DNA from: Candidatus Nomurabacteria bacterium
GTDB taxonomy: Bacteria > Patescibacteriota > Minisyncoccia > Phycocordibacterales > UBA9973
Assembly (NCBI GenBank): GCA_026395895.1
Contig: JAPLXV010000003.1
Location: 1-56,600 of the forward strand
Length of the DNA stretch: 56,600 bases
Direction: 5' to 3'
Positions 3,671 through 52,171 of the stretch are shown in pieces. Each line of letters starts with the position of its first letter. Within the stretch, counting starts at the first letter, position 1. The notes under the pieces were generated by a model. It worked only from the letters and a program-made list of their open reading frames with translations. It searched no databases and had not been told where the DNA came from. The position numbers and the translations under genes are program-made.

Positions 3671-3784
3671 GAGCCACGCGGAGCGTGGCGAATCCTTTCA
3701 GAATCAGGATTTTTTGGGGGGAATTCAGAACAGACGGCACTTCGTGCCGATCATTTTTTTGGTTCCGAAGCCCTTTTCGAAAAA
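3671..3784 (-). repeat. X' arm, inverted copy of the X arm
   Basis: See 2144-2257. It abuts core TTGCGG at 3785-3790. Confidence 0.75.
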
Positions 3785-3790
3785 TTGCGG

Positions 3791-4016: not shown

Positions 4017-4032
4017 CCATAAAAAATACAGA

Positions 4033-4061
4033 TTGATAAAATCCATAATTTTTGCTATCAT
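4033..4061 (+). promoter_or_regulatory. Candidate sigma-70 promoter for the element cargo operon
   Basis: TTGATA 4033-4038, 17 nt spacer, TATCAT 4056-4061, about 60 nt upstream of the XRE gene. Confidence 0.35.
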
Positions 4062-4120
4062 TGTTTTGTGAGCAAAGAAAGTAATCACTCATAAGATAAT
4101 ACTATCAAAGTTTGGATACT

Positions 4121-4318
4121 ATGGCAACTATATCAGAAAACATAAAACGAATACGAACAAAACAAGGATTGACGCAAGACGACTTGTCGAAGAAAGCGGA
4201 CATCAAATACTCTACCCTGACAAAAATTGAGGGTGGCGTCGTTACCAAACCAAGCGTTCAAACAATTCAAAAAATCGCCAAGTCGTTAGGCGTTTCCATT
4301 GAGGAATTATTAAAATAA
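4121..4318 (+). CDS. XRE-family helix-turn-helix transcriptional regulator
   Basis: NIKRIRTKQGLTQDDLSKKADIKYSTLTKIEGG..KPSVQTIQKIAKSLGVSIEELL is a classic HTH_3 pattern. ATG at 4121 is preferred over the TTG at 4112 in the track. Confidence 0.85.
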   Translation: MATISENIKRIRTKQGLTQDDLSKKADIKYSTLTKIEGGVVTKPSVQTIQKIAKSLGVSIEELLK

Positions 4319-4329
4319 CTTAAAAAATT

Positions 4330-4941
4330 ATGTATATACCACTTTGGATAATTGTTATCGGTGTCGTCGTATATTTCTTTTGGGCTAAAAACAAAAAAGA
4401 AAAACCGGAACACAAAAAAGAAGCAACCCCGCCTTTAAATGACAAAAGAACAAGTTTGAATCCTTTATTTTCTGAAGAAGAAATAGCTCGCAAAAAAGAA
4501 ACCGCAGACAAATGGCAAGAATATGTTGTGCAGTATTTTGATGAGTTGTTCAATCAAGAAAAAAAAGAAGTAGAAGCTCACCAGAAATCTGGTAAAGATA
4601 AGGACACTTTCAAGCCAAGTGAAAAACTTATAGGCATTATTCAAAAACAATCAATGTCATTATTGGGACGAAATAATGCAATGAAAGATTATCGAAAAAT
4701 GATTGAATCCAATATTGCTATTATTAACGGAGGAGAAATTGAGAAAGTGGAAAAAACATATTGGGATCAAATGTGCCATATTCCTTACGATAACTTTGAC
4801 ATTATTTATAACCCCGATATTTATTTGGACGATAAAGAAATGAAGGAAATGTACAATAGCAATATGGAGCATCGCAAGAAATTCTGGAAAGACAGTTGGG
4901 ACTACATTCTTAAAAAAGAGTATGTGCAGAAAGAAGACTAA
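4330..4941 (+). CDS. Hypothetical protein with N-terminal transmembrane anchor (element cargo)
   Basis: 203 aa ORF with N-terminal IPLWIIVIGVVVYFFW, then a charged K/E-rich region. I recognise no family. Confidence 0.6.
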   Translation: MYIPLWIIVIGVVVYFFWAKNKKEKPEHKKEATPPLNDKRTSLNPLFSEEEIARKKETADKWQEYVVQYFDELFNQEKKEVEAHQKSGKDKDTFKPSEKLIGIIQKQSMSLLGRNNAMKDYRKMIESNIAIINGGEIEKVEKTYWDQMCHIPYDNFDIIYNPDIYLDDKEMKEMYNSNMEHRKKFWKDSWDYILKKEYVQKED

Positions 4942-4965
4942 TTATTAAAATAACTTAAATACACT

Positions 4966-5502
4966 ATGGACAAAAATAATATAAAACCAAAAGAATTATT
5001 TGAGAAATTAAAATCGGTTGGATTAGCCGAAGAAGTAAGCCCATTTTTATTAAAAGGAATAGATACTCACACTGAAAAAGATAATTTGGGTGGGTATTTA
5101 GTGTTAGAAGATCTAAAAGATTTTATTAAGAAAAAACTACCGTCCCTAGAGCAAAAAATAAGTGGCTGGGCAAAAGGAGGAATGCGTTCTTATACTAAAG
5201 ATGAGTTACTTGCATACGAACAAAGCAAGGTGCTTATTGATTTGCTTGAATCAACGGGTGGAAACGGCGAAAAACTTAGGGAATATTGGTTATCACATTG
5301 TCCAACACAACACAAAACAATCAAGGAATCAAAATTGTTTGACTCAAATAGTGAAGAAACAGAAGTTTTTGATAAAGTTCTTGGAAAAATCGTGAAAGAT
5401 GGTGGTGACGAAAATGATGAGAATTTTTTAAAGGAAGTTGAAAAGCGTTTGGGACACCCAATCAAAAACTTTTTTGATTGGTCGCTTCCTAGCGAAAAAT
5501 AA
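4966..5502 (+). CDS. Hypothetical protein (element cargo)
   Basis: 178 aa ORF on the same strand and tightly spaced. I recognise no family. Confidence 0.6.
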   Translation: MDKNNIKPKELFEKLKSVGLAEEVSPFLLKGIDTHTEKDNLGGYLVLEDLKDFIKKKLPSLEQKISGWAKGGMRSYTKDELLAYEQSKVLIDLLESTGGNGEKLREYWLSHCPTQHKTIKESKLFDSNSEETEVFDKVLGKIVKDGGDENDENFLKEVEKRLGHPIKNFFDWSLPSEK

Positions 5503-5503
5503 A

Positions 5504-6040
5504 GTGGAATTTTCAGAAATTCTTAAAAGTATAGAAAGTAAGTCTACTAAAGCAAACCATGAGTTGATTTGGGCTTATTTTTTTATTTTTCACTTAAACA
5601 AAGAAAAATCTTTTGACTATGAAGTTGAGGAAGGTCCAAATGACTTAACCGATGTTTATGCAAAATCTAAAAGCGAAAAGTTTCCAGTTTTGAAATTACA
5701 ACTTACATGGGCAAAAGAAAAAGATTTCAGTCCTAAAATAGTAATTAAGGATTTGAAGTTTAGTACAGAAATTATTTTAGAAGCCGTTAAAAGAAAATAC
5801 GAAAAGTATGAAAAACAAGGTAAAGCGGATTCACTAAATGAAATAATTCTTGTTATACAAGGCGACCTTCCAAGTGGGTGGGATGATTTAGTTGATGATA
5901 AAAAAATAAAAGAAGAAATTGTAAAATATCCTTTTCGTGGAATTTATTACATTACTCCACCTGGAACTAAATCATCCTTGAAAGATAGAACGCCTATTAT
6001 GCATAACGGATTCGTTCTATGTTTCAAGGAGGCATTTTAA
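5504..6040 (+). CDS. Hypothetical protein (element cargo); start uncertain (GTG 5504 or ATG 5438)
   Basis: The ORF is open over 5438-6040. GTG at 5504 lies 1 nt after the upstream stop, whereas ATG at 5438 would overlap by 65 nt. Confidence 0.55.
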   Translation: MEFSEILKSIESKSTKANHELIWAYFFIFHLNKEKSFDYEVEEGPNDLTDVYAKSKSEKFPVLKLQLTWAKEKDFSPKIVIKDLKFSTEIILEAVKRKYEKYEKQGKADSLNEIILVIQGDLPSGWDDLVDDKKIKEEIVKYPFRGIYYITPPGTKSSLKDRTPIMHNGFVLCFKEAF

Positions 6041-6045
6041 TTTAT

Positions 6046-6271
6046 AAGCCCGCCCGAATTTCGCCAAAACAAAAAGAGGAGCAAGCGGAGGATTCCTCCC
6101 CAGACCCCTCCTCCTCCGCTTGCGACATCCGAATTCGGAAAAAAGGAATCAGCCGAAGTTTTGCGGAATCCTTTCCCCAGAAAATTGTTTCCGCAAAACT
6201 TCGTCCTCATTGTTTCAGATTTCTTCATCGGGATTGCTTTCAAAAAAGGTTCGAATTTTGTACAATGAATA
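6046..6271 (-). repeat. Y' arm, inverted copy of 3791-4016, abutting the attR core at 6272-6277
   Basis: See 3791-4016. Confidence 0.9.
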
Positions 6272-11552: not shown

Positions 11553-13631
11553 ATGGCTAAAGAAAAAGAAGTAAAAAATGGGCACCATTATGATGCCTCT
11601 GATATCTCTGTTTTAGAAGGACTTGATCCAGTCAGACGTCGTCCAGGAATGTATATCGGAACCACCGGTCCAGAAGGTTTACACCATCTCGTTTGGGAAA
11701 TTTTTGATAACTCGCGCGATGAAGCGATGGGTGGTTTTTGTGATGATATAGAAGTTGTCCTTTTGCCGAACAATCGTATTCGAGTGGCAGACAATGGGCG
11801 AGGTGTGCCTGTTGATATTCACAAAAAAACTAAAGTATCTGCTTTGGAAACTGTTATGACTACTCTGCATGCTGGAGGAAAATTCGGTGGAGAAGGCTAT
11901 AAAGTTTCTGGAGGCTTGCATGGAGTGGGAGCGTCAGTAGTAAATGCGCTCTCAATTTATTGTAAAGCGGAAGTGCATAAAGATGGTGGTAAATATATAC
12001 AAGAATATTCTCAAGGTAAGAAAAAAGCTTCAGTAAAAAAAATTGGGTCTTCAAAATTACATGGAACCATCATTACTTTTGAACCAGATCAAGAAATTTT
12101 TAAAGATATAAAGTTTGATTTAAGTACAATTATAAATCATATTCGTCAGCAAGCTTATTTAGTTAAAAAATTAAAAGTTTCAATAATAGATGCGCGAGGT
12201 TGGGATAATAAAAAAGGACTTGATGACTCTGACGTATTTTATTTTAGAGATCTTGGCATAGAACTTCCCTCCACTTCTTTTTATTTTGAAGGAGGATTGA
12301 TTTCTCTTATAAAATATTACAACAAGTTTCAAAAACCACTTCACGATCATATTTTTTATGTTGAAAAAGAATTGGACGGTGTGATGGTTGAAATAGCTTT
12401 ACAATATGTTGATGACATTGTTGATAGAATAATTCCTTTCGCAAATAATATACATACCGCTGAAGGTGGGACACATGTGACTGGTTTTAAAACTGCTCTT
12501 ACTCGCACCTTGAATACTTATTGTAAAAAGAATGAAATGATGAAAGATTCAGAAGGTGGATTTACCGGCGATGATGTACTGGAAGGTCTTACAGCTGTCA
12601 TTTCGGTGAAGTTAAGAGAGATACAATTTGAAGGTCAAACCAAGGCAAAATTAGGCTCTATGGAGGCCCAAGGAGCTGTTGGGACAATTTTTGGGGAGGC
12701 TTTTGCTGCTTTTCTAGAGGAAAACCCAGATGAAGCAAAAGCTATAATAAATAAGTCTATTTTGGCCTTAAAAGCTCGTAAAGCAGCCAAAGCGGCTAAA
12801 GATTCAGTTCTTCGTAAAGGTGCGCTTGAAGGTATGACCCTGCCTGGAAAATTAGCAGATTGCCAAAGCAAAAGTGCAGAAGATTCAGAATTATTTTTAG
12901 TAGAAGGAGATTCGGCAGGAGGTTCGGCTAAACAAGGTAGAGATAGACGCACTCAAGCCATTCTTCCGCTTCGTGGAAAAATTTTAAATGTTGAACGTGC
13001 TCGCATAGATAAAATGCTTGCTTCTAAAGAAGTAAGAGCTCTGGTTATTGCGATGGGTACTTCTATTGGAGACACTTTTGATCTTTCTAAAATGCGTTAT
13101 CACAAAATAATTATTGCCACAGATGCTGATGTGGACGGTGCGCACATTCGCACCCTTTTGCTGACTCTTTTTTATAGATATTTTAGACAAGTTGTGGACG
13201 CGGGCTATATTTATATTGCTCAACCACCACTTTATAAAATAAAAAGAGGAAAGGAAGTTAGTTATGCATATTCCGATGAAGAGAAAATAAAAATTATCGG
13301 TAAAGAAACAGATGTAAGTGAGATACAAGCGGTTAATGATGAAGAACCCCTACCCGACCTCCCCCTTAGTAAGGGGGAGGAGAAAGGAGGGGGTCTAGAG
13401 TCTAAACAATCTACAAAAATTCACATTCAGCGTTATAAAGGTCTCGGAGAAATGAACCCAGAAGAACTTTGGGAAACAACCATGGACCCAGCTCATCGAG
13501 TATTAAAAAAAGTAAATATAGATGATGCCGAAGAGGCCAACAAAATTTTTGAAATTCTGATGGGTTCCGAAGTTCCTCCTCGAAAATCCTTTATCCAATC
13601 TAATGCTAAATTAGCAGAGATTGATATTTAA
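11553..13631 (+). CDS. gyrB: DNA gyrase subunit B
   Basis: YDASDISVLEGLDPVRRRPGMYIG, GGLHGVGASVVNALS, EGDSAGGSAKQGRDR, PLRGKILNVE, QRYKGLGEMNPEELWETTMDP. Confidence 0.97.
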   Translation: MAKEKEVKNGHHYDASDISVLEGLDPVRRRPGMYIGTTGPEGLHHLVWEIFDNSRDEAMGGFCDDIEVVLLPNNRIRVADNGRGVPVDIHKKTKVSALETVMTTLHAGGKFGGEGYKVSGGLHGVGASVVNALSIYCKAEVHKDGGKYIQEYSQGKKKASVKKIGSSKLHGTIITFEPDQEIFKDIKFDLSTIINHIRQQAYLVKKLKVSIIDARGWDNKKGLDDSDVFYFRDLGIELPSTSFYFEGGLISLIKYYNKFQKPLHDHIFYVEKELDGVMVEIALQYVDDIVDRIIPFANNIHTAEGGTHVTGFKTALTRTLNTYCKKNEMMKDSEGGFTGDDVLEGLTAVISVKLREIQFEGQTKAKLGSMEAQGAVGTIFGEAFAAFLEENPDEAKAIINKSILALKARKAAKAAKDSVLRKGALEGMTLPGKLADCQSKSAEDSELFLVEGDSAGGSAKQGRDRRTQAILPLRGKILNVERARIDKMLASKEVRALVIAMGTSIGDTFDLSKMRYHKIIIATDADVDGAHIRTLLLTLFYRYFRQVVDAGYIYIAQPPLYKIKRGKEVSYAYSDEEKIKIIGKETDVSEIQAVNDEEPLPDLPLSKGEEKGGGLESKQSTKIHIQRYKGLGEMNPEELWETTMDPAHRVLKKVNIDDAEEANKIFEILMGSEVPPRKSFIQSNAKLAEIDI
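13346..13394 (+). repeat. GC-rich palindromic module in frame in gyrB (family 3)
   Basis: 10 bp stem CCTCCCCCTT 13358-13367 / AAGGGGGAGG 13371-13380. Outer pair ACCCC 13346-13350 / GGGGT 13390-13394. It encodes PLPDLPLSKGEEKGGG just upstream of the RYKGLGEMNP motif. Confidence 0.8.
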
Positions 13632-17418: not shown

Positions 17419-19566
17419 ATGCGACTAAAAAACCTTGAAATAAATGGCTTTAAATCATTTTCTAAAAAAACTGTTTTGGAGTTTCAAAATTCGATTGTGG
17501 CTATTGTCGGTCCCAATGGATCTGGTAAATCAAATGTAGTGGAAGCTTTGCGTTTTGTTTTAGGCGAACAGTCAATGAAATCAATGCGTGGGTCATTGGG
17601 AGCTGATTTGATTTTTAAAGGGTCAAAAAACTTACCCAAAAGTTCCCGAGCAACTGCTACTATATATTTTAATAACTCTGATAAAATTTTTAAACTTTCT
17701 AATGAAACAGGAGAAAATATAAATTTAAATTATGATGTTATTTCAATTTCTCGTGAAGTTTTTTCTGATGGCTTAAATAAATATATTTTGAATGGTTCAG
17801 AAGTAAGATTAAAAGATATTAATAATCTTTTATCCTCAGTTAATATTGGTTCTTCTGGGCACCATATTATTTCGCAAGGTGAGGCGGACAGAATTCTAAA
17901 TGCTTCTCCTAGGGATAGAAGGGAAATGGTAGAAGATGCTCTTGGACTTAAAATTTACCAATATAAAATAAAAGAAGCGCAACGCAAATTAGAAAGAACT
18001 ACCGACAATATGAAAGAGGTTTCACTTTTGCGTCGAGAAAATGCTCCGCATTTAAATTTTCTAAAAAAACAAGTAGATAAATTTGAAAAAGCAAAAGAAA
18101 TGCAGGTAACATTGTTATCTCTTTATAAAGAATACTTAAAGAAAGAAAGTGTTTATTTAGAAAAAGAACAATCAAATTTACTTTCAGAAAAAAATAAAAT
18201 TTCTTTAGAGTTGAAAAACGTAAAAGAGAAAATCTCTGATACAGATGAAACTGAAAAGAGAGGAGAAAGTGAAAAAGAAAAAGAATTAAAAGTATTTGAA
18301 AAAAAGATAAGTGAAATTCATGCAGTCAAAAATGAAATAGAACGCAAATTGGGAAGAATTGAAGGAATTCTTGAATCAAAAGGAAATAAAGTTAAAATTT
18401 CTGGTAAATGTCCTTTATGTGGCAGTGAAATTAAGGAAAAAGAAGAAGGTCAGATAGAAAAGAGACAAAATGATGAAAAAGAATTGGAAGAATTAAAAAA
18501 TTCTCAAGCTGGTATTCTAGCTGAAATGGAGAATTTAAAAAATGAGGAGGGAAATATTTTTGAAAAAATAGAAATATTGAAAAAAGAAATTAATCAAGAG
18601 AATGAAGCTCTGCATATAAAAGAAAAGGAGAAATTTAATTTTAGAGTTAGGCACCAAGAGTTATCCTCTTCTTTAGATCTAATTTCTGTCAAAGAACAAA
18701 ATCTTAAAAGAGAGATAGAATCTTTCGAAAATGAAATAAAAGAAGGTGAAGCTTTAATTGGAAGTGAAATTTTGTCTTATAAAAATTTTGAGGTGAATGA
18801 AATAATTGATAGAAATGCGCAAGAAGAATCAAGACGAAAAATTGAACGTATAAAAATGAAGTTAGAAGACGTTGGTGTGGGTGGAGGATCAGAAGTAATG
18901 AAAGAATATGAGGAAGTTTTTCAAAGAGATAATTTTTTAGCCAAAGAGATGGAAGATTTAGCTGTAAGTATAGAGTCTCTTCGAAAATTGATGGCAGATT
19001 TGAAAGAAAAAATAGATATAGAATTTAAAGAGGGTATTAAGAAAATAAATGTAGAGTTTGATAAATTCTTTTCTTTGATGTTTGGCGGAGGAACTGGCTA
19101 TCTTGCAATTGTTGTTGAAAGTAAAAAGAAGAAAGAAGCCCCGACGCTCGAAGAGGTCGGGGTCCCGACTCCTGATGAAGATCAGGACGTCGGGAAAGAA
19201 ATCGTTCCTGAACAAGGCATTGAAATTAATGTTTCGCTTCCACATAAAAAAGTGAAAGAACTGAATGCACTTTCTGGAGGAGAAAGGTCTCTTACCTCTA
19301 TTGCTCTTCTTTTTGCTATGTCCCAAGTAAATCCACCGCCATTTTTGGTACTTGATGAAACAGATGCTGCGCTAGACGAAGCAAATTCTCGCAAATATGG
19401 GGATATGCTAGAAAAACTCTCTCATCACTCTCAGCTTATAGTCGTTACTCATAATAGGGAAACAATGTCTCGCGCTGGCATTTTATATGGCGTCACTATA
19501 GGTTCCGATGGTGCCTCCAAACTTCTCTCTGTCAAACTGGACGAAGCCGCCGCAATTGCAAAGTAA
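17419..19566 (+). CDS. smc: SMC-family ATPase, short form (715 aa) with no recognisable hinge and a central CPLC motif
   Basis: SMC-type heads: GFKSFSKKTVLEF...GPNGSGKSNVVEALRFVLGEQS at the N-terminus and LSGGERSLTSIALLFAM...FLVLDETDAALDEAN...VVTHNRETM at the C-terminus. The middle is all coiled coil, with GKCPLCGSE at aa 331-334. Confidence 0.85.
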   Translation: MRLKNLEINGFKSFSKKTVLEFQNSIVAIVGPNGSGKSNVVEALRFVLGEQSMKSMRGSLGADLIFKGSKNLPKSSRATATIYFNNSDKIFKLSNETGENINLNYDVISISREVFSDGLNKYILNGSEVRLKDINNLLSSVNIGSSGHHIISQGEADRILNASPRDRREMVEDALGLKIYQYKIKEAQRKLERTTDNMKEVSLLRRENAPHLNFLKKQVDKFEKAKEMQVTLLSLYKEYLKKESVYLEKEQSNLLSEKNKISLELKNVKEKISDTDETEKRGESEKEKELKVFEKKISEIHAVKNEIERKLGRIEGILESKGNKVKISGKCPLCGSEIKEKEEGQIEKRQNDEKELEELKNSQAGILAEMENLKNEEGNIFEKIEILKKEINQENEALHIKEKEKFNFRVRHQELSSSLDLISVKEQNLKREIESFENEIKEGEALIGSEILSYKNFEVNEIIDRNAQEESRRKIERIKMKLEDVGVGGGSEVMKEYEEVFQRDNFLAKEMEDLAVSIESLRKLMADLKEKIDIEFKEGIKKINVEFDKFFSLMFGGGTGYLAIVVESKKKKEAPTLEEVGVPTPDEDQDVGKEIVPEQGIEINVSLPHKKVKELNALSGGERSLTSIALLFAMSQVNPPPFLVLDETDAALDEANSRKYGDMLEKLSHHSQLIVVTHNRETMSRAGILYGVTIGSDGASKLLSVKLDEAAAIAK
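19139..19195 (+). repeat. 57 nt double-hairpin module in frame in smc (family 1, TCCCGAC/GTCGGGA)
   Basis: CCCCGAC-N10-GTCGGGG, then TCCCGAC-[TCCTGAT GAAG ATCAGGA]-C-GTCGGGA. It encodes APTLEEVGVPTPDEDQDVGK. Confidence 0.85.
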
Positions 19567-19568: not shown

Positions 19569-21485
19569 TTATTTGAATTTGATTTTTTCTTCCTTGCCGA
19601 TTATTAATTGATTTGGCTGGAAGAATTTGTTTAGTTTAACGGTGTCTTTTTTTATGGACATACTTCCATCTCTATTTAATTTAATTTCCAAAAGCATACC
19701 CTGCATTGTATTTACGGAAAAACCCTGGTCAAAAATAAAGTTGCCTAGCGAATAAGCGATAAAACCCACGCACGAATTTTGAGTGCAATCTTTTGGGCTA
19801 TAAACTTCTGTATCTTCTACCACGTGTGGATGAGTGCCAATTATAATTTTAGCCCCGTCATCTATTGCCTTGTGCGCTAAATATTCTTGTCTGGAATTAT
19901 GTTTTATTTTATATTCGTCTCCAAAATGAAATGACACGACTAAATAATCAACTTGCTTAGATGCATTTTGCACTATTTCATCAAAACGCGGATTGCTTGC
20001 AAATAATAAACCAGCTTTGTCTGCTCCTGCCTCCATCCAATCTGGCCCTACATCTGAAAATCCCAAATATCCTATTTTCATTCCATATTTTTCTATAATA
20101 ACAGGCATTTCTGCTTCGTTTGCATTCATTCCTCCACCAATATATGAAATTTCATTTTCTTTTAATCTAGTTAAAGTATCAACATAAGCATTTTGTCCCC
20201 AATCTCCCATATGATTATTAGCAACCGAAACCACAGAAAATCCTGCGCCTTTTAATGCAGGAATAGTGGAAGGGTCCATTCTAAATGAATATAAATTATG
20301 CATATCTTTTCCTGCATCAGAGGCTGGACCTTCCAAATTTGCAAAAGTTATATCAGATCTTTTTAAGATTCCTAATTTTTCAAAAAGGGCTGAGTAATCT
20401 CCTTTGAAATTTTTGTTTACAGAATTTTTAACTCCACGATCAAGCATTATATCTCCACCGAACAAAAGAGTGACGAAATCTTGATCATATACTACAGGTA
20501 AATCAGTTCTTTCTTTGACCCAAGCAGTATTAGCGTCAGCTTCTCCGCCATAATATATATTTTTATTTAAATATTTTAAAATATTTTCTACGTCCTTAAA
20601 ACGATCTTTACTTTGTAAAAGAGTGATAGCAATATGGCGTGTTCCAGCTTCTGAAAGGGGAACTGAAAAAGTGGAAATAACTGTTTGTAAAGCGACATCT
20701 GTATAACCACTTTTACCTCCCAAATAGCCATTTTCAAGCAGGAATTGATTATTACTGAACCAATTGTGTGTTTTATTGGAATAGCTTCGTTTGGTTGTGA
20801 TTTGTAGTAAATTTGGGTCTTTTTGATTTAAATATCCTGCTAATTTAAACATATCAAAAACAGTTGATTGATTTTTAGGAGAAAGTCCGCTTGGGTCGTC
20901 AAAACTAGTCTTAGATAATTCTAATTTGAGAGCCTCCTGGTTCATTTTTTTTAGAAAAATATCTCGGCCAAAAAATTCAGCTATTACTTCGGCAGCATCA
21001 TTGCTTGATTCTAAAAGTAGGGGATAAATGAGGTCTGTAATTTTTATTTTTTCTCCTATTTTCAAATTACCATTCTTTCCAGAGGTGGCTGAGGCTTTTT
21101 TAGAAACTTTAGCAATATCATCTGAGCTTTTTGATTCTGTGGCCACAAGCGCAGTCATAAGTTTAGAAACAGAAGCAAGTGAATATTGTTCATCTTGATT
21201 TTTTGTCAAAATAATTTCTCCCGTATCTAAATCACCAACTAAAAAAGCCTTGGCTGATACTTTTGGTTTCAAATTTAAATCTTTTACGAAATAAGAAAAT
21301 CCAGATGTTAATTCTGGTGCTGTCAGAGATTCCATGGCTGTTGCGGTATTTTCATTTGGTTCTATTATTTTTTTATATTCAGCATCTTTAAAAAAGAGAG
21401 AGACAAAAAAAATACCAACCATAGTAGCAGAGATTGTCCAAAATCCGAGTTTAATTTTTGGACCTAGGGTAGATTTCATATTCAT
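19569..21485 (-). CDS. Fusion protein: N-terminal D-alanyl-D-alanine carboxypeptidase (S11 PBP) and C-terminal CapA-type metallophosphatase domain
   Basis: N-terminal TM, then SVSKLMT (SxxK), ESSNDAA (SxN) and KSGYT (KTG). The C-terminus has GGDIMLDRGV, ANLEGP, VANNHMGDWG, SFHFGDEY and GTHPHV. Confidence 0.85.
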   Translation of the reverse strand: MNMKSTLGPKIKLGFWTISATMVGIFFVSLFFKDAEYKKIIEPNENTATAMESLTAPELTSGFSYFVKDLNLKPKVSAKAFLVGDLDTGEIILTKNQDEQYSLASVSKLMTALVATESKSSDDIAKVSKKASATSGKNGNLKIGEKIKITDLIYPLLLESSNDAAEVIAEFFGRDIFLKKMNQEALKLELSKTSFDDPSGLSPKNQSTVFDMFKLAGYLNQKDPNLLQITTKRSYSNKTHNWFSNNQFLLENGYLGGKSGYTDVALQTVISTFSVPLSEAGTRHIAITLLQSKDRFKDVENILKYLNKNIYYGGEADANTAWVKERTDLPVVYDQDFVTLLFGGDIMLDRGVKNSVNKNFKGDYSALFEKLGILKRSDITFANLEGPASDAGKDMHNLYSFRMDPSTIPALKGAGFSVVSVANNHMGDWGQNAYVDTLTRLKENEISYIGGGMNANEAEMPVIIEKYGMKIGYLGFSDVGPDWMEAGADKAGLLFASNPRFDEIVQNASKQVDYLVVSFHFGDEYKIKHNSRQEYLAHKAIDDGAKIIIGTHPHVVEDTEVYSPKDCTQNSCVGFIAYSLGNFIFDQGFSVNTMQGMLLEIKLNRDGSMSIKKDTVKLNKFFQPNQLIIGKEEKIKFK

Positions 21486-23611
21486 TATGTTGTTAGCGCA
21501 TAATCTATCGTTTTTCTTTCTAAATCAACACTTTTTACTTTTATCTTTACTCGGTCGCCTAGTCTGTATTTTTTCCCCGACGCTTTCGGTCGGGATCCCG
21601 GCCCCAAAGGGCGTCGGGACTTTTTCCCTTGTCCGACTAGTTCCAATTTTTTTTCATTAAAAATATAAAAATTATCTTCCATATCTCGTACTCGTACCAG
21701 ACCCTCGCATTTTGTTTCTACTTCTTCTACATAAATACCCCATTCTGTTATACCACTAATAATACCTTCAAATGTTTTTGAAATACGAGAAGACATATAT
21801 TCAACTTGTTTGTATTTTATAGAGGCTCGTTCAGCATCTGAAGCAAATTTTTCTCTTTCTGATGCTTTTCTGGAAATTTCTTCATAGATACTTAATTTCT
21901 CTTTGCCCACTTTTAATCCTTTTAGGTAATCTGTCAAAAGTCTGTGGACTACTACATCTGGGTAGCGTCTGATGGGGGAAGTAAAATGAGCATAGTATTC
22001 AAAAGCCAAACCATAGTGGCCGACATTTTTTGTGGAATAAATTGCTTTGGCCATAGAGCGTATAATTGCGCGATTGACTGTATTTTCTTCATTTTTTCCC
22101 TCAAGACTCTTTAGAAGATTATTTAATTCATAATTTGGAATAACCCCATCAATTAAAGATATTTTATATCCCAAACTCCTTAAAAAGAATGCCAAATCAG
22201 TCATTTTTTCTTTACTAGGATTATCATGGATACGATAGACAAATACTCCTCCATCTTTCTTGGTGCCTTTGGAGATAGTTTCAGCCACTTTTTTATTTGC
22301 TAAAAGCATAAATTCTTCAATTAATTTGTTTGAATCACCTCGTACTTTTTTTATTACTTTTAACGGTGTTCCATTTTTATCTAAAACAAATTTTACTTCT
22401 TCTTGTTCGAGCGAGATAGCTCCATTTGCAAATCTTTCTTTGTTCAATTTTTTAGCCAAATTATTTAAAATAAAAAGTTCTTTGTGCAGTGGCGCTGAAT
22501 TTTCTTTTATAGATTTTTCCGCTTCTTCGTAAGTAAATCTTTTTTGAGAATGTATCACCGTACGTCCGTACCATTCTTTTTTTACTTGCGCGTTTTTGTC
22601 TAGGACAAAAACTGCGCTCATGGTCAGTCTGTCTTTATTGGGAACTAGAGAACAGAGGTCGTTAGAAAGTACTTCCGGAAGCATTGGGATAGTTCTATCT
22701 ACTAAATAAACAGAAGTGCCTCTTTTTTTTGCTTCCTTATCAATTTCGCTTCCAATTTTTACATAATGAGAAACGTCGGCTATATGAATTCCGATTTCAT
22801 ATACCTCACCCCCTAACCCCCTCTCCTTGAAACCCCCTTGCTCCCCCTTATCAAGGGGAAACCATTTGCCTCCCCTGACAAGGGGAGGTCTGGAGGGGTT
22901 AAGGAGAGGGGGGAGAATACGGAATGAAATGGCATCATCAAAATCTTTTGCATCATCTGGGTCAATAGTAAAAGTGAGAGTTTTTCTAAAATCGCGTCGC
23001 CCATTATAATCTTCATTTTTAATACCTAAACTTTTTATTTTTTCCGCTTCCTCCTCAACTTTTTGAGGCAGTTCACTATCAAACCCTTTTTCTATAGCGA
23101 TAGCATGCATTTCCGCATTATTGTCTCCGGGTTTTCCTAAAACTTTTATTATTTTTCCTTCTGGTGCTTTTAGTCCATCTTTCCAAAAAATTATTTCTGT
23201 ATAGACTTTTTGTCCTGCCTTTGCGCCATTTAGCATTTTTTCGGGTATTAGAATATCGGTATACATTTTTGTATCATCGGGTTTTAGAAAATATATGCCG
23301 TCTTCTTTCTCTAAGACTCCCGAAAAGCCCATCTTTGCACGAGAGATTATTTTTAATACTTCGGCTGTCAAACGCCCTTTTCCTTTTGGATGCAAAGTAA
23401 TTTCAACCATATCACCGTGCAGAGCTGTATTTAAGTGCCTAAAATCAATCTCAGGGTCCTTCCCGACGTTCTGATTTCTATCAGAAGTCGGGATCCCGAC
23501 CCCATTGGGCGTCGGGACCTCATTCAATATTCTTACATATCCAATACCCTTGCTTGTTATAGATATAATACCCTGTACTGTCTTTTGAATTTTTTTTGTT
23601 TTTCCTTTCAC
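21485..23611 (-). CDS. rnr: Ribonuclease R (start probably GVG-context GTG at 23611; track ORF extends to 23722)
   Basis: Cold-shock/OB N-terminus, an RNB domain (DPDDAKDFDDA, GIHIADVSHYV, VYLVDRTIPMLP) and a C-terminal S1 domain. The 23612-23722 extension overlaps the rpsP start region on the opposite strand. Confidence 0.9.
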   Translation of the reverse strand: MKGKTKKIQKTVQGIISITSKGIGYVRILNEVPTPNGVGIPTSDRNQNVGKDPEIDFRHLNTALHGDMVEITLHPKGKGRLTAEVLKIISRAKMGFSGVLEKEDGIYFLKPDDTKMYTDILIPEKMLNGAKAGQKVYTEIIFWKDGLKAPEGKIIKVLGKPGDNNAEMHAIAIEKGFDSELPQKVEEEAEKIKSLGIKNEDYNGRRDFRKTLTFTIDPDDAKDFDDAISFRILPPLLNPSRPPLVRGGKWFPLDKGEQGGFKERGLGGEVYEIGIHIADVSHYVKIGSEIDKEAKKRGTSVYLVDRTIPMLPEVLSNDLCSLVPNKDRLTMSAVFVLDKNAQVKKEWYGRTVIHSQKRFTYEEAEKSIKENSAPLHKELFILNNLAKKLNKERFANGAISLEQEEVKFVLDKNGTPLKVIKKVRGDSNKLIEEFMLLANKKVAETISKGTKKDGGVFVYRIHDNPSKEKMTDLAFFLRSLGYKISLIDGVIPNYELNNLLKSLEGKNEENTVNRAIIRSMAKAIYSTKNVGHYGLAFEYYAHFTSPIRRYPDVVVHRLLTDYLKGLKVGKEKLSIYEEISRKASEREKFASDAERASIKYKQVEYMSSRISKTFEGIISGITEWGIYVEEVETKCEGLVRVRDMEDNFYIFNEKKLELVGQGKKSRRPLGPGSRPKASGKKYRLGDRVKIKVKSVDLERKTIDYALTT
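21575..21619 (-). repeat. 45 nt double-hairpin module in frame near the rnr C-terminus (family 1, read in a different frame)
   Basis: CCCGAC-GCTTTCG-GTCGGG, then TCCCGGC-CCCAAAGGGC-GTCGGGA. It encodes SRRPLGPGSRPKASG. Confidence 0.8.
22807..22914 (-). repeat. ~108 nt nested multi-hairpin GC-rich module in frame in rnr, just upstream of the HIADVS catalytic motif (family 3)
   Basis: Outer 12 bp stem CCCCCTCTCCTT 22817-22828 / AAGGAGAGGGGG 22901-22912. Inner hairpins CCCCTT-ATC-AAGGGG (22844-22858) and CCTCCCCT-GACA-AGGGGAGG (22869-22888). It encodes PPLLNPSRPPLVRGGKWFPLDKGEQGGFKERGLGGE. Confidence 0.85.
23461..23517 (-). repeat. 57 nt double-hairpin module in frame in the rnr N-terminal region (family 1)
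   Basis: TCCCGAC-[GTTCTGAT TTCT ATCAGAA]-GTCGGGA, then TCCCGAC-CCCATTGGGC-GTCGGGA. Same length, orientation and frame as the smc copy. It encodes VPTPNGVGIPTSDRNQNVGK. Confidence 0.85.
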
Positions 23612-23673
23612 TCTTTTAATATAACATAAATTTTTGTATTTGCCTTTTTGGGGAATTATGTTAGACTCTAAAG

Positions 23674-23982
23674 ATGTTAAAAATAAGATTACAAAGAATT
23701 GGAAGGAAAAATGACCCATCATTTCGGGCGGTTTTGACTGATTCTAAAAACAGCACTAAAAGCGGAAAATTTTTAGAAATAGTTGGTACTTATAATCCAA
23801 AGGCGGGCGAGACTAGTTTTAAGACTGAAAGAATACAATACTGGGTTTCAAAAGGGGCACAACTTTCCGATACCATGCATAATTTTATGGTGCATCAAAA
23901 AGTGATAGAAGGGAAGAAGAGAAACGTATTGCCGAAGAAAAAACCGACAGTTAAAAGAAAGGAGTTGAAAGCTAAAAAATAA
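23674..23982 (+). CDS. rpsP: 30S ribosomal protein S16
   Basis: MLKIRLQRIGRKNDPSFRAVLTDS...GTYNP...W...GAQLSDT. Confidence 0.93.
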   Translation: MLKIRLQRIGRKNDPSFRAVLTDSKNSTKSGKFLEIVGTYNPKAGETSFKTERIQYWVSKGAQLSDTMHNFMVHQKVIEGKKRNVLPKKKPTVKRKELKAKK

Positions 23983-24044
23983 TCGTATATAATTATTACA
24001 GCAGTGCAGTTAATCATTTAAGGTCGTAACACTGCCAAACATTT

Positions 24045-24075
24045 CAGCCAGTGGGCTGATCCGCCTACTGGCGGA
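24045..24075 (+). repeat. Intergenic tandem-hairpin module (family 2, TCCGCC/GGCGGA)
   Basis: CAGCC-AGTG-GGCTG, A, TCCGCC-TACT-GGCGGA. Same architecture as the 30 nt modules in rpoB and the HMA permease gene. Confidence 0.7.
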
Positions 24076-27630: not shown

Positions 27631-27776
27631 TTAGAAAAATAAGGAACGTAGTGACTATATTTTTCTTAACCCCAGTTAAATAATTTTCTGACTTAGGTCA
27701 GAAAATTCCCTGCAAAGCAGGGATTTAACAGGGTGATGATTTTAATAGTCGTTTCACTCCTTTAAAATCAATCATG
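27631..27776 (+). ncRNA. Structured leader element, copy 2 (ends at the ATG of rpoB)
   Basis: Conserved 5' and 3' blocks shared with 6817-6954. Internal hairpins TTTTCTGAC-TTA-GGTCAGAAAA and TCCCTGC-AAA-GCAGGGA replace the two hairpins of copy 1. Confidence 0.55.
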
Positions 27777-30700
27777 CAAACAGAAAAACGTCCAAAGAAG
27801 TATTTTGCCAGATACAAGGATCCATTAATAGAATTTCCTAATTTAATAGAAGCTCAAACTAAATCTTACAAGTGGCTTGTGGAAGAGGGTTTGAAGGAAG
27901 TTTTTAAGGAATTTTCTCCAATCATCGATTACTCTGGAAAAAAGTTTGAACTTGAGTTCACCTCTTTTTCTTTGGGTGAGCCTAATTGCGATGAGAATGA
28001 TGCGAAAATAAATAAACTCTCATATCAAGGGCTTTTGAAGACGCGAGTAAAATTAAAAAATAAAATTTTAGGAACCGAAAAAGAGCAAGAAATTTTTATG
28101 TCTGAAATTCCACTTATGACTGCACACGGAACTTTTATTATCAATGGAGTAGAGCGTGTGATTGTGCCACAGCTTGCAAGAAGTTTTGGAGTCTTTTTTA
28201 CTGAATCTGAAAATAAAGGCAAAAGATATTTTGGGGCAAAAATTATTCCAGCTCGTGGAGTTTGGATTGAAATAGAATCAGAATCTGATGGGGCAATTTA
28301 TATAAGAATAGACAAAAAAAGAAAATTTCCTGCTACCGCTTTGCTTCGAGTAATGGGATATGAAACGAATGAGATGATGCTCAAAGCATTTTCCGCCAAA
28401 GGCGGACAAGCCTCTGGCTTGGAAAACATATGCAAAGAAGCCATTGAAGCTTGTTTGGCAAAAGATGTAGCCAAAACATTAAATGATGCATATATTGAAA
28501 TATATAAACGCTTAAGAGACGGAGACATGGCTACTCCCGAGAATGCTAAAGAATTTATTAATTCTTTATTTACCCCTGAAAGATATGATCTTTCTCCAGT
28601 TGGACGATACCGATTTAATAAACGTTTTGAAAAATCTCTGGAAGAAGACGAACTTGCTCGCCGAACTATTTCTAAAGAAGATTTAATGACTGTCATTGCA
28701 AATATTATTGTTTTAAACAATACTCCTGGAGCTAAATCCGACGATATTGATCACTTGGGCCAAAGACGTGTTCGATTTGTTGGAGAAATGCTTCAGCAAA
28801 AAGTGCGTACTGGTATGATGCAAATAAAGAGAAACATTCAAGACAGAATGTCTATTATTGATGTTGATACTGCCATGCCCATCCATATTATCAATCAACG
28901 TCCACTCCAAGCTCGCATTAAAGAATTTTTTACTACCAACCAACTTTCGCAATTTATGTCGCAGGAAAATGTGCTGGCAGAGATAGAACACATTCGTTTG
29001 CTTTCTGCCCTTGGTCCTGGGGGACTTACTCGTGAACGCGCAGGTCTAGAAGTTCGAGACGTGCACCCTTCTCACTATGGACGTGTTTGTCCTATTCATA
29101 CTCCAGAAGGTCCAAACATTGGACTTATTTTACATCTTTCTACTTATGCAAAAATAAATGATTTTGGAATTATTGAAACTCCATATATAAAAGTTAAAAA
29201 TGGAAAAATCACCGGAGAAGTTCAATATTTAAATGCACTGGAAGAAGAAAAATACAATATTGCCCATGCTGGAATTCTTTATGATGAGCATGGAAAAATA
29301 ACAGAAGAAAAAGTAGCAGCCAGAATAAAAACTAATCCAGGAATGATAAATCGCGATCAAGTTGATTTTATTGATGTGGCTGCTAATCAGGGTTTTTCTC
29401 TAGCAACTTCTATGATTCCATTTTTGGAACATAATGACGCTAACCGTTCGCTCATGGGAAGTAACATGCAAAAACAAGCAGTGCCTTGTGTTCTTCCTGA
29501 AGCACCATTGGTGGCCACCGGAATTGAAGCGATGGCTTCTCGCTACTCTGGTAGAATGGTTATTGCTTTAGAAGATGGGGTTGTTTCTTATTTAGATGCA
29601 AAGAAAATAGTAGTCAAAGGAAAATCAGAAAAAACTTATACGCTCGTTAATTTTTTGAGGAATAATAACTTTTCTGCCTTTCATCAACGTCCTTCGGTAG
29701 ATGTTGGCCAAAAAATAAAAAAAGGAGACGTTTTAGCTGATACAACCAGCACAGTAGATGGACAAATTTCAGTTGGACAAAATATCTTTGTGGCTTTCTT
29801 GTCTTGGTCTGGATCAAACTATGAAGATGCTATAGTTATTTCTGAACGTCTTATAAAAAAGAGTAAATTTACCAGTGTTTATGTTGAAGAGTTCGTTTGC
29901 ACAGTTCGTGATACGAAACTTGGACCTGAAATTACTACTCGAGATATTCCAAACGTTGGAGAATTAAAACTAAAAGATTTGGATGAGGATGGTATCGTTC
30001 GTATTGGAGCTGAAGTGAGAGAGAATGATATTTTAATAGGTAAAATTACTCCCAAAGGTGAAACAGAACTTACTCCAGAAGAAAGATTACTTCGTTCAAT
30101 TTTTGCCGAAAAAGCACGTGATGTGAAAGATACATCACTTCGCATGGAACACGGCAAACGTGGACGTATTATTGGTGTTAAAATTTTCTCTCGCGATTTA
30201 GGTCATACACTTGAAGCAGGAATTATTAAAAAGATTGTGATTGAAGTTGCTCAAATTAGAAATATTTCAGTCGGGGATAAACTTTCTGGACGACACGGAA
30301 ACAAAGGAGTTATTTCAAGAATTCTTTCAGAAGAAGATATGCCTTATACAGCAGATGGTACACCAGTTGATATTGTTCTTTCACCTTTAGGTGTTCCTTC
30401 TCGTATGAATCTAGGACAAGTTTTAGAAATGCATCTTGGTATGGCAGCCAATACTCTAGGATATCAAGCCATCGTTCCTCCATTTTTAGGAGCCAGTCAT
30501 GAAGAAATAAAAGAGGAATTAAAGAAAGCTGGATTTCCTGAAAATGGTAAATTAAAACTTTTTGACGGACGCACAGGAGAAGCTTTTGATCAAGATATTG
30601 CTGTTGGTTATATGTATATGTTGAAGCTTCATCATATGGTAGAAGATAAAATTCATATGCGTTCTATTGGACCTTACTCTCTTATTACTCAACAGCCATT

Positions 30701-30968
30701 AGGCGGTAAAGCTCAAGGTGGAGGACAAAGATTCGGAGAAATGGAAGTATGGGCCTTGGAAGGATATGGCGCAGCTTATACTTTACGAGAAATGCTTACT
30801 ATCAAGTCTGATGACATTTTAGGTCGTTCCCAGACTTTTGATTCTATTATCAAAAACGAAGTCATTAAACCGCCAAATTCTCCAGCATCATTCAATGTGT
30901 TGCTAAATTATTTACGAGGGCTTGCGCTTGATGTTAACTTGAAAAAATACAATGAAAACTTTAAATAA
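27774..30968 (+). CDS. rpoB: DNA-directed RNA polymerase subunit beta
   Basis: LIEAQTKSY, GTFIINGVERVIV, RLLSALGPGGLTRERAG.EVRDVH.SHYGR.CPI.TPEGPNIGL, GRHGNKGV, GGQRFGEMEVWALE. Confidence 0.98.
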   Translation: MQTEKRPKKYFARYKDPLIEFPNLIEAQTKSYKWLVEEGLKEVFKEFSPIIDYSGKKFELEFTSFSLGEPNCDENDAKINKLSYQGLLKTRVKLKNKILGTEKEQEIFMSEIPLMTAHGTFIINGVERVIVPQLARSFGVFFTESENKGKRYFGAKIIPARGVWIEIESESDGAIYIRIDKKRKFPATALLRVMGYETNEMMLKAFSAKGGQASGLENICKEAIEACLAKDVAKTLNDAYIEIYKRLRDGDMATPENAKEFINSLFTPERYDLSPVGRYRFNKRFEKSLEEDELARRTISKEDLMTVIANIIVLNNTPGAKSDDIDHLGQRRVRFVGEMLQQKVRTGMMQIKRNIQDRMSIIDVDTAMPIHIINQRPLQARIKEFFTTNQLSQFMSQENVLAEIEHIRLLSALGPGGLTRERAGLEVRDVHPSHYGRVCPIHTPEGPNIGLILHLSTYAKINDFGIIETPYIKVKNGKITGEVQYLNALEEEKYNIAHAGILYDEHGKITEEKVAARIKTNPGMINRDQVDFIDVAANQGFSLATSMIPFLEHNDANRSLMGSNMQKQAVPCVLPEAPLVATGIEAMASRYSGRMVIALEDGVVSYLDAKKIVVKGKSEKTYTLVNFLRNNNFSAFHQRPSVDVGQKIKKGDVLADTTSTVDGQISVGQNIFVAFLSWSGSNYEDAIVISERLIKKSKFTSVYVEEFVCTVRDTKLGPEITTRDIPNVGELKLKDLDEDGIVRIGAEVRENDILIGKITPKGETELTPEERLLRSIFAEKARDVKDTSLRMEHGKRGRIIGVKIFSRDLGHTLEAGIIKKIVIEVAQIRNISVGDKLSGRHGNKGVISRILSEEDMPYTADGTPVDIVLSPLGVPSRMNLGQVLEMHLGMAANTLGYQAIVPPFLGASHEEIKEELKKAGFPENGKLKLFDGRTGEAFDQDIAVGYMYMLKLHHMVEDKIHMRSIGPYSLITQQPLGGKAQGGGQRFGEMEVWALEGYGAAYTLREMLTIKSDDILGRSQTFDSIIKNEVIKPPNSPASFNVLLNYLRGLALDVNLKKYNENFK
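28392..28421 (+). repeat. 30 nt tandem-hairpin module in frame in rpoB (family 2)
   Basis: TCCGCC-AAA-GGCGGA, then CAAGCC-TCT-GGCTTG. Codon-aligned; encodes SAKGGQASGL. Confidence 0.8.
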
Positions 30969-51097: not shown

Positions 51098-52171
51098 ATG
51101 CAAAAAACATACACATTTCATGTAAACGGTATGCACTGTAACGCGTGTGTAGTATTAACCGAAAGCGAACTTTCTGAAGTGTCTGGGATTTCTGGTGTTA
51201 AAGCATCACTGAATGATTTTAGTGTTGAGGTAACAGGGGATTTTTCCGCCAGAGGCGGATCCGCCTCTGGCGGAGGAGATACACCAGAAGCTGTGGCTGA
51301 ATATTTATCTACAGTATTAAAACCACATGGTTATACGCTTTCGCTTCAAAAGGAAGAACATTTGGTTAAATGGTCTGATTTTCGCATTGCTTTGCCGATT
51401 GCCGTCGGTTTTGTTTTTGTGTTTTTTATTTTACAAAAACTTGGCATTGTAAATTTAATAAATGTGTCAAAAGTCAATTATGGAACTGCTTTTATTATTG
51501 GTCTTGTTGCTTCTGTTTCTACATGTATGGCGGTAGTTGGTGGTTTGGTTCTTTCTATGTCGGCAAATTTTGCTAAAGAAAACGACCCTTCGATTTCTCT
51601 CAGGGCAAGCAATATGCGACCGCAAATTTTATTTCATATTGGCCGGCTCGCATCGTTTTTTATTCTTGGTGGAGTAATCGGGGCACTTGGTTCGACATTT
51701 CAACTTGGGACAATTGGCACCTTTATTCTTAGTTTTATTGTGGCAATTGTTCTACTTATTCTCGGTATTAATCTTTTAGATGTTTTTCCTTGGGCAAAAA
51801 AACTTCAACCAACTATTCCAAGTTTTATTGGTAAACGTGTTCATGGTCTAAAAAATATTAATCATACCCTTACTCCTCTTTTGGTTGGTGTTGCCACTTT
51901 CTTTTTGCCTTGCGGTTTTACTCAATCAATGCAAATATATACTTTAACTACTGGAAGTTTTTTGACTGGATCTTTAATCATGTTTTCATTTGCTCTTGGA
52001 ACACTTCCAGTATTATCACTTTTAAGTTTTAGTTCATTGGGGATACATAAAAAAGCGCAGTCCGGAATTTTTTTCAAAACAGCTGGTCTTATTGTGATAT
52101 TTTTTGGAATCTTTAATCTAATCAATGCTTTGGTCGGCGCTGGAATTATTCCTCCAATTTTTAATTTTTAA
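51098..52171 (+). CDS. HMA domain fused to a DsbD_2/TauE-like permease
   Basis: N-terminal NGMHCNACV. The membrane domain has VSTCMAVVGG and FFLPCGFTQSMQIY. Confidence 0.8.
   Translation: MQKTYTFHVNGMHCNACVVLTESELSEVSGISGVKASLNDFSVEVTGDFSARGGSASGGGDTPEAVAEYLSTVLKPHGYTLSLQKEEHLVKWSDFRIALPIAVGFVFVFFILQKLGIVNLINVSKVNYGTAFIIGLVASVSTCMAVVGGLVLSMSANFAKENDPSISLRASNMRPQILFHIGRLASFFILGGVIGALGSTFQLGTIGTFILSFIVAIVLLILGINLLDVFPWAKKLQPTIPSFIGKRVHGLKNINHTLTPLLVGVATFFLPCGFTQSMQIYTLTTGSFLTGSLIMFSFALGTLPVLSLLSFSSLGIHKKAQSGIFFKTAGLIVIFFGIFNLINALVGAGIIPPIFNF
51245..51274 (+). repeat. Perfect 30 nt palindrome in frame in the HMA domain (family 2)
   Basis: TCCGCC-AGA-GGCGGA, then TCCGCC-TCT-GGCGGA. Codon-aligned; encodes SARGGSASGG. 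Confidence 0.85.
51584..51610 (+). repeat. Family 4 GC-rich module in frame in the permease domain
   Basis: GACCCTTCGATTTCTCTCAGGGCAAGC encodes DPSISLRAS. It is related to 36223-36248 in dnaG. Confidence 0.6.

Follow-up and report, generated by a model that had tools for sequence, protein, structure and literature searches.

How a GC-rich palindrome came to lie, in frame, inside the gene for the beta subunit of RNA polymerase is the question raised by positions 28392 to 28421 of contig JAPLXV010000003.1 from a Candidatus Nomurabacteria bacterium (assembly GCA_026395895.1); the 56,600-nucleotide stretch analyzed, referred to as the window, has a GC content of approximately 0.34. The 30 nt form two abutting 15-nt hairpins, and the element that they represent was named E, with the canonical sequence TCCGCC-RRA-GGCGGA directly followed by TCCGCC-TYY-GGCGGA. 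The answer that we consider likely is that E is a very small, nonautonomous palindromic mobile element, translated within its host genes and filtered through the encoded peptide, the hairpin or cruciform DNA of which would be recognized by an enzyme acting in trans. A preliminary description made from the letters of the window had read the copy in rpoB as TCCGCC-AAA-GGCGGA plus CAAGCC-TCT-GGCTTG, encoding SAKGGQASGL in frame, and this proved exact in both sequence and coordinates. The copy and its surroundings are arranged as follows.

27774-30968, plus strand: rpoB, the host gene, an open reading frame (ORF) of 1,064 amino acids
28389-28391, plus strand: TTT (Phe206), bordering the insertion site on its left; part of the target and not of the element (the empty locus L001 reads GCA TTT GAA AAA)
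28392-28421, no strand assigned: the copy of E in rpoB, 30 nt or 10 codons, amino acids 207-216, SAKGGQASGL
28392-28406: hairpin 1 of this copy, TCCGCC-AAA-GGCGGA (TCCGCCAAAGGCGGA)
28407-28421: hairpin 2 of this copy, CAAGCC-TCT-GGCTTG (CAAGCCTCTGGCTTG)
28422-28424, plus strand: GAA, bordering the insertion site on its right (target TTT^GAR)

The ORF encodes RpoB, as all six Rpb2 Pfam domains are present, and its product is identical to a recorded DNA-directed RNA polymerase subunit beta from a Candidatus Nomurabacteria bacterium metagenome-assembled genome (MAG). Among 120 RpoB homologs sharing 86 to 100% identity, most read ...LKAFE-K-TPN-CKEAIEACLAKD; the short KAFE-KTPN-CKE loop occupies the E site in approximately 106 of them, and a recognizable ten-residue insert after the Phe was found in only about 14. 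The closest relative, L001 (95% amino acid identity), lacks E and has GCA TTT GAA AAA ACT CCT AGC TGT where the window has GCA TTT [30 nt] GAA AAC ATA TGC. Relative to L001 the filled allele is thus 24 nt longer, comprising the 30-nt element and a 6-nt deletion a few bases downstream, and it has no flanking direct repeat.

The position of E on solved RNA polymerase structures was consistent with this comparison. The alignment to the Pseudomonas/E. coli-type RpoB chain breaks at E, with query residue ~209 corresponding to chain residue 233 and the alignment resuming at 358; in the E. coli chain the alignment extends as far as residue 223, placing E at chain residue ~224/225, and a clostridial chain shows a 12-residue gap spanning the module. 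Solved RpoB chains therefore have either a gap or a lineage-specific insertion of their own at the site, which we take to be that of beta-SI1 (E. coli residues 225 to 343) in the beta lobe. An AlphaFold 2 (AF2) model of the whole of RpoB was poor (predicted confidence, pLDDT, of 45), and only residues 140 to 320 of the lobe, at 71 to 86, were usable; within the lobe pLDDT dips below 50 at residues 210 to 213, between helices 199-208 and 214-230. The suggestion in the preliminary description that the module occupies a surface loop holds on both the solved chains and this low-confidence loop, and no conserved RpoB sequence aligns with its ten residues. As most close relatives lack the ten residues and the site is the insertion point of the large proteobacterial lobe insertion, E is, judged by alignment, an insertion in RpoB rather than native sequence and sits in an apparently tolerant loop of the beta lobe.

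Two sister copies of E are present in the window.

51245-51274, no strand assigned: the canonical copy, a perfect 30-nt palindrome consisting of TCCGCCAGAGGCGGA followed by TCCGCCTCTGGCGGA, encoding SARGGSASGG
24044-24075, no strand assigned: a noncoding copy, TCAGCC-AGTG-GGCTGA TCCGCC-TACT-GGCGGA, 32 nt with 4-nt loops, between divergent genes

The first falls within ORF 51098-52171, which encodes an HMA-DsbD_2 membrane protein, in the part for the HMA domain, and the peptide and reading phase reported for it earlier, the latter shared with the rpoB copy, were borne out by the sequence. The existence of the noncoding copy was likewise confirmed, but its extent is 32 nt rather than the 31 nt first given. 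A near-consensus promoter-like site, TTGAAA-17-TATAAT, was observed at 23965-23993; as the noncoding copy lies downstream of it, this copy is probably in the 5' untranslated region of the rpsP-KH-trmD operon. The pattern search proposed in the preliminary description, run on the window, returned three matches to TCCGCC-N3-GGCGGA, compared with 0.00 in 100 shuffled sequences. Where 1.1 GC-rich hairpins with 6-bp stems would be expected, 19 were present, and 3 pairs of such hairpins abutted directly, compared with an expectation of 0.01; the pattern in the window is beyond chance. When folded as single-stranded DNA (ssDNA), the rpoB and intergenic copies each form two hairpins (-11.6 kcal/mol, z of -3.3 relative to shuffles, and -13.5 kcal/mol, z of -5.4, respectively), and the perfect copy at 51245-51274 forms one 13-bp hairpin (-18 kcal/mol, z of -6.5).

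E is not specific to this genome. The canonical 30-mer was present in at least 120 stretches of the species genomes in GTDB (596 Gb), a data set in which, by our estimate, the chance expectation for its 24 specified bases is well below 1. Among the 80 titles counted from the matches listed, approximately 37 belonged to classes of the candidate phyla radiation (CPR)/Patescibacteria, 9 to Gammaproteobacteria MAGs, 8 to Omnitrophota, 8 to the Kiritimatiellae, Verrucomicrobiota, Lentisphaerae, and Planctomycetes (PVC), 8 to unclassified "bacterium" MAGs, 4 to Ignavibacteria/Bacteroidota, 2 to Firmicutes, 2 to Chloroflexota (contigs of 69 to 70% GC), and 1 each to Deltaproteobacteria and Firestonebacteria. 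Inside open frames of at least 120 codons lay 93 of 125 copies (74%), and 62 host proteins matched 129 Pfam families, including DnaG, Pol III alpha, aminoacyl-tRNA synthetases, helicases, Mur ligases, and PGK, so that many unrelated housekeeping genes in many phyla are affected. E was also found at another site in RpoB (L101) and in RpoC (L068), for both of which the window proteins serve as empty references. A phage or plasmid vehicle was considered and rejected, as only two viral contigs in IMG/VR carried E and no real match was found in 72,556 plasmids or 50,697 phage records.

The precise boundaries of E could be defined where filled and empty alleles were available. In dnaG, the syntenic relative L002 reads ATT TTT [TCCGCC GAA GGCGGA TCCGCC TCT GGTGGA] GAA GAT and the window, which is empty, ATT TTT GAG GAT. 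In the HMA-DsbD_2 gene, 113 of 120 homologs have GDF-GDK without an insert and 7 carry it; the empty L207 reads GGT GAT TTT GGT GAT and the window GGG GAT TTT [30 nt] GGA GAT. In both pairs exactly 30 bp was gained, between TTT and a purine-initial codon, and no target-site duplication was detected in either comparison. Two filled alleles also differ from their empty counterparts by a small deletion a few bases 3' of E, of 6 nt in rpoB (28422-28433) and 3 nt in the HMA gene (51275-51283), which could be either compensation of loop length or a scar of the junction.

Across 118 further copies the flanks follow the consensus ttY^...^Raa, with T at position -2 in 101 and A at position +2 in 92, and TTT or TTY immediately precedes E in most copies. 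Loop 1 is RRA, with A at the third position in 110 of 118, and loop 2 is TYY, with T at the first position in 112 of 118; as the consensus of the flanks mirrors itself (ttY/Raa), as does that of the loops (RRA/TYY), E is two-fold symmetric, and its hairpins are strictly terminal. A T-run on the 5' side and an A-run on the 3' side are found on both strands, so that E is not an intrinsic terminator on either, and a terminator scan flagged neither the rpoB nor the intergenic copy. A search of the window against Rfam 15 at gathering score matched only two tRNAs and thus no known RNA family for E.

The longest word shared by the flanks of a copy was 4.72 nt compared with approximately 3.95 in controls, with a tail of 8 to 15 nt. 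A minority of copies (L040, L063, L065, L107, L108, L115, and L124) have imperfect A/T-rich direct repeats of 7 to 8 nt on both sides, such as AAATCTT and AAAAGTC, for which microsatellite-like insertion sites and junction duplication are both options. Duplication of the target through such repeats was rejected as a general property of E, as the repeats around the HMA copy are already present in the empty site of L207 and the dnaG and HMA pairs show no duplication.

Relatives differ in whether they carry E at four genes (the HMA gene, rpoB, dnaG, and an SMC-like gene), and the family of modules named earlier is upheld as a mobile one. L002, a 23-kb syntenic relative of the window with ~80% DNA identity, has four copies: those in rpoB and the intergenic region are common to both, the orthologous intergenic copy being longer (8529-8580 of L002), and those in dnaG and the SMC-like gene are missing from the window. 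The HMA gene falls outside L002, so the copy in it cannot be compared between the two. In these two sequences the density of E is approximately one copy per 6 to 19 kb.

The fate of a resident copy could be followed at the rpoB site in a series drawn from 80 metagenomic loci plus L210. The latter has the canonical form, TTT [TCCGCC AAA GGCGGA TCCGCC TCT GGCGGA] GAG. Hairpin 2 is changed in a compensated manner in L125 and L193 (CCAGCC-TCT-GGCTGG) and in the window (CAAGCC-TCT-GGCTTG), the window being one compensated pair apart from L125 (CCAGCC/GGCTGG); single mismatches are present in L002, and L145 has decayed completely toward AT, to 13% GC, with the ten codons kept. In 17 rpoB copies chosen by position rather than by structure, 72% of cells pair versus 59% in shuffles (0/500), and the covariation score is 0.47 versus 0.26 in shuffles and at most 0.20 in slid registers, with the caveat that the structure tested was derived from one of the 17 sequences. 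Compensated stems at independent loci take the form YCNNCC/GGNNGR. Fixed copies are inherited vertically and then either erode to AT or keep the two stems through paired changes. Two copies contain further insertions, a 21-nt GC-rich insertion nested inside E in the HMA gene of L209 and a larger nested set of GC-rich insertions in rpoB of L211, where the insert has grown from 10 to 26 residues, and E may itself be an insertion target.

Coding copies are unevenly distributed among the three reading phases. Of 93, 77 are in phase 0 (SAxGGSAxGG), 9 in phase 1 (PPxADPPxA), and 7 in phase 2 (RxRRIRLxR). Sites of the form TTT^RAA in long ORFs of the same loci are divided 371:370 between phases 0 and 1 and never occur in phase 2, and with available sites at 50:50:0 and copies at 77:9:7 the bias does not come from target choice. 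Selection on the encoded peptide can explain it, which would in turn mean that E is translated, and E is thus inferred to be transcribed and translated as a flexible surface loop. The preliminary description had suggested a strong filter for in-frame events; a filter is upheld in the codon phase of the copies and in the 3-nt loops of coding copies, but the notion of a filter against frameshifts is not, as 30 nt never shifts the frame. Only 3 of 125 copies have 4-nt loops, and none of these is clearly coding: short ORFs hold two, and the third lies ~20 nt from where a 220-codon ORF ends.

Three features, namely, the strict two-fold symmetry of E, the covariation of its stems alongside conserved loop classes, and its insertion beside a short T-rich motif with no duplication, point to the recognition of E as hairpin or cruciform DNA by a structure-specific enzyme supplied in trans, for which an HUH/Y1-transposase-like protein or a structure-specific nuclease would be a candidate. 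Copying would probably take place on ssDNA at replication forks; this is the most uncertain step of the explanation. Insertions lie at junctions of T-rich sequence and a purine (TTT^GAR in rpoB and dnaG and TTT^GGA in the HMA gene), and a copy would persist because its Ser/Ala/Gly peptide is presumably harmless, in RpoB as a lobe loop at what appears to be the position of the proteobacterial lineage-specific insertion.

To identify a mobilizing gene linked to E, 2,439 ORFs from 120 E loci were clustered all against all, and no family was recovered in more than six loci. As no neighboring gene recurs within 8 kb of the copies, E is considered nonautonomous. The largest cluster was a small YhbQ-like GIY-YIG nuclease, located 50 nt to 4.8 kb from E; its family occurs within 8 kb of 7 of 120 E loci. 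It has no member in the window and, rejected as a linked mobilizer, is kept as a lead only. In L030 (7380-7500) and L117 (1285-1316), E was observed in the anticodon loop (TTG^AAA and TTTT^CAT) of a duplicated tRNA 5' half directly upstream of a YhbQ-like GIY-YIG gene, itself inserted beside an intact tRNA; tRNA prediction called no tRNA in L030.

Several points weigh against this explanation. No transposase or nuclease was tied to E in the 8-kb pieces around the copies or in the window, and E is too short for the spacing between guide and cleavage site of known IS200/IS605 ends. Translation of the ten codons was deduced rather than observed. The covariation is weaker than the counts suggest, since AT-biased mutation alone gives GC-to-AT changes on both arms and the correction of quasi-palindromes can mimic selection. 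Finally, filled rpoB alleles of Nomurabacteria share linked differences (E-N-I-C versus E-K-T-P-N-C) and are patchy on a rough neighbor-joining tree, and the rpoB gene of the window is, apart from E, most like the empty L001; the filled allele may thus have spread within Nomurabacteria by homologous recombination more than by repeated transposition.

A serious but doubtful alternative is that host replication and repair copy E without any dedicated enzyme, through microhomology-mediated template switching, in which a stalled or broken 3' T-end anneals beside another copy, copies the hairpin-prone 30 nt, and switches back. That no gene is linked to E agrees with such a process, as do the A/T microhomology flanks common to nearly all copies, the subset with imperfect direct repeats on both sides and the longer shared flank word (4.72 versus ~3.95), and the deletions 3' of E in the filled rpoB (6 nt) and HMA (3 nt) alleles; spread across phyla would need just the transfer of any E-bearing DNA. 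However, the boundaries are precise to a single base in both dnaG and the HMA gene, the dominance of one stem sequence (TCCGCC) across phyla suggests sequence-specific recognition, and the direct repeats of the HMA site, which precede E there, are not products of its insertion.

It is unlikely that E is instead a functional nucleic acid signal under selection, such as a DNA uptake sequence (these organisms depend on competence), a site for a dimeric protein, or a hairpin affecting mRNA stability or pausing, with the rpoB copy being adaptive. The two-fold symmetry would suit a dimeric binder, stems are maintained by paired changes in some lineages, the density in the window and L002 is high, and patchy filled alleles fit biased uptake plus recombination. 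Yet many orthologous copies erode unchecked, reaching 13% GC while still encoding the loop, and the closest relatives lack E, both of which make a signal less likely; the same 30-mer in phyla of unrelated biology argues against one specific to a lineage, Rfam gave no match, and the location of the copies with respect to gene starts and ends varies.

Very improbable is a third possibility, that E is never translated, being either cut out of the mRNA or bypassed by the ribosome, as are the GC-rich "byp" insertions in Magnusiomyces mitochondria, reportedly described by Lang et al. in 2014. There is indeed a resemblance to byps, E too being a GC-rich hairpin inserted into essential genes where the genome is AT-rich, and the peptide itself was not directly shown. 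Against this, coding copies are 30 nt, a multiple of three, and open in all frames, they are enriched 8-fold in the benign Ser/Ala/Gly phase, and decayed orthologs keep the ten codons as ordinary sequence, none of which constraints on length, phase, and codon retention would exist if the element were skipped. A fourth reading is effectively refuted, namely, that SAxGGSAxGG is a convergently selected linker or an ordinary RpoB loop with an incidental palindrome, or that the whole is due to chance or an assembly artifact. The peptide could plausibly serve as a linker, and lineage-specific insertions in RpoB are known to concentrate at this site, but 24 of 30 nt do not vary among phyla although the codons are 4- to 6-fold degenerate, copies exist in noncoding DNA and in the other two phases, the chance expectation is ~0, and the same alleles recur in independent NCBI, ENA, and JGI assemblies and form an evolutionary decay series.

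With E considered probably mobile, it was compared with known small elements. No description of it was found in the full-text literature searched, including by its own sequence strings, although most subscription journals lay outside the coverage and an earlier description is possible. One close parallel is with the Rickettsia palindromic elements (RPEs), reportedly described by Ogata et al. in 2000, a study cited in PMC3733652, as ~100 to 150 bp long and confined to Rickettsia. Both are palindromic, lie in frame in essential genes of an AT-rich reduced genome, and encode no transposase; RPEs are said to be translated and tolerated on protein surfaces, and the same is assumed for E. In-frame insertion at a surface site, as in RPEs, is what the alignments and the structural model indicate for the rpoB lobe loop, and the copies in the HMA domain and dnaG are in-frame insertions where most homologs have none. 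Size and host set the two apart, E being 30 bp, with two abutting 6-bp hairpins, and present in many phyla; its sequence is presumably unrelated to that of RPEs.

Insertion sequences of the IS200/IS605 family and their miniature derivatives, the palindrome-associated transposable elements (PATEs), have a hairpin at each end and insert 3' of a short target, without duplication, through an ssDNA intermediate; known IS200/IS605 ends need tens of nucleotides from the foot of the hairpin to the cleavage site. E shares insertion 3' of a short target (TTT/TTY) without duplication. It differs from PATEs, which have subterminal hairpins with guides, cleavage 10 to 20 nt away, asymmetric ends, and a cognate TnpA, in that its hairpins are terminal and symmetric, and no tnpA or tnpB was seen in the 8-kb neighborhoods of E copies. 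Classical miniature inverted-repeat transposable elements, like E, are small, nonautonomous, and multicopy, but they are at least 50 bp long, with terminal inverted repeats and target-site duplications, whereas E is 30 bp and generates no duplication (TTT^GAG in dnaG and TTT^GGT in the HMA gene).

Repetitive extragenic palindromes (REPs) and their BIME and REPIN arrangements are short GC-rich hairpins, often inverted dimers, present in high copy number; intragenic REP dimers are also known, notably in replication and repair genes, where they add 20 to 30 residues (Di Nocera et al. 2013, PMC3733652). REP units carry a GTAG or CGTC tetranucleotide at one end, and their mobilization is attributed to Y1 (RAYT) transposases that act in trans on ssDNA hairpins (PMC3733652). 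E is likewise a short GC-rich palindrome within the 20- to 40-bp range of REPs, built of 15-nt units as a 30-bp abutting inverted dimer. It has neither tetranucleotide tag (its consensus is ttY-TCCGCC...GGCGGA-Raa), it is 74% intragenic where REPs are predominantly extragenic, and it is one sequence across phyla where REP families are lineage specific. Genomes with REPs also have a cognate RAYT gene, as a rule with repeats on either side, whereas the 8-kb pieces around E copies and the window showed no recurrent neighboring gene. Mitochondrial hairpin elements, namely, the double-hairpin elements (DHEs) of Allomyces, the repetitive hairpin elements (RHEs) of sponges, and the GC clusters of yeast, occur in intergenic DNA, in variable regions of rRNA, and occasionally in protein genes, and Allomyces DHEs have no flanking duplications (PMC2800124). 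DHEs, found in AT-rich genomes, and E have in common two adjacent GC-rich hairpins, dispersed copies, and the absence of flanking duplication; DHEs are organellar, longer, more variable, and mostly noncoding, in contrast to the bacterial, mostly coding, and fixed 30-bp E. Overall, E resembles RPEs, intragenic REP dimers, and mitochondrial DHEs but fails the defining features of each, and it stands out for its minimal size, its identity across phyla, and its predominantly coding location.

Other hairpin families were observed in the window. A second GC-rich tandem family, built on GTCGGGATCCCGAC, was found at 21575-21619, 19137-19172, and 23487-23521; with CGTC/GACG on either side of its stems, it recalls the CGTC-tagged REPs, and the 45-nt copy at 21575 (15 codons in ORF 21485-23722, minus strand) is missing from L002. 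A third family, CCCCTT-N3-AAGGGG, lies in ORFs at 13355-13380 and 22840-22890 and encodes PLxKGE-like peptides. Approximately 90 nt of GC-rich hairpins (CCCCCTCCTCC-ATA-AGGAGGGGG and others) at 689-779 lie inside the gene for NAD-dependent DNA ligase (ORF 52-1506) near its zinc-finger region. Conversely, GC-rich hairpin inserts present only in L002 were located at the equivalents of window positions 23985, 36655, 23220, and 18799, and they include CTGCCTGCCGGTAGGCAG in dnaG and a 38-nt intergenic module; several hairpin families thus turn over between genomes of ~80% identity. In a Kiritimatiellae MAG (L009, 4570-4770 and 6390-6585; L054, 7176-7366), E forms one end of a ~190-nt intergenic repeat that holds a long GTCATTCCGAGCG...CGTTCAGGATGAC hairpin. 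The gene for a large serine recombinase at 1961-3649 (minus strand) adjoins tRNA-Ser (2054-2141), and 42-nt inverted copies at 3936-3977 and 6085-6126 bracket ~2.1 kb containing three ORFs without Pfam matches; positions 1961-6126 are probably an integrated mobile element.

Taken as mobile DNA, E implies that a 30-bp selfish palindrome is remodeling the core enzymes encoded by streamlined CPR genomes, RNA polymerase and primase among them, and some of the "lineage-specific insertions" in CPR proteins may stem from it. For annotation and for phylogenetics based on marker genes such as rpoB, this calls for caution; for population genomics, E offers a practical marker. Being of fixed length, symmetric, identical across phyla, and common, it provides a clean natural system for the mobilization of hairpin DNA without target duplication, a question that also stands for REPs, RPEs, and the mitochondrial hairpin elements, and for how selection filters random peptide insertions. 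More tentatively, E may be, at 30 bp, the smallest mobile DNA yet seen, moving across phyla by an uncharacterized, duplication-free mechanism directed by hairpins or cruciforms, whether through a widely conserved host enzyme or a small structure-specific nuclease such as the YhbQ-like GIY-YIG protein encoded beside a few copies. If so, E would be a general means by which the essential proteins of uncultivated bacteria continue to gain new surface loops.

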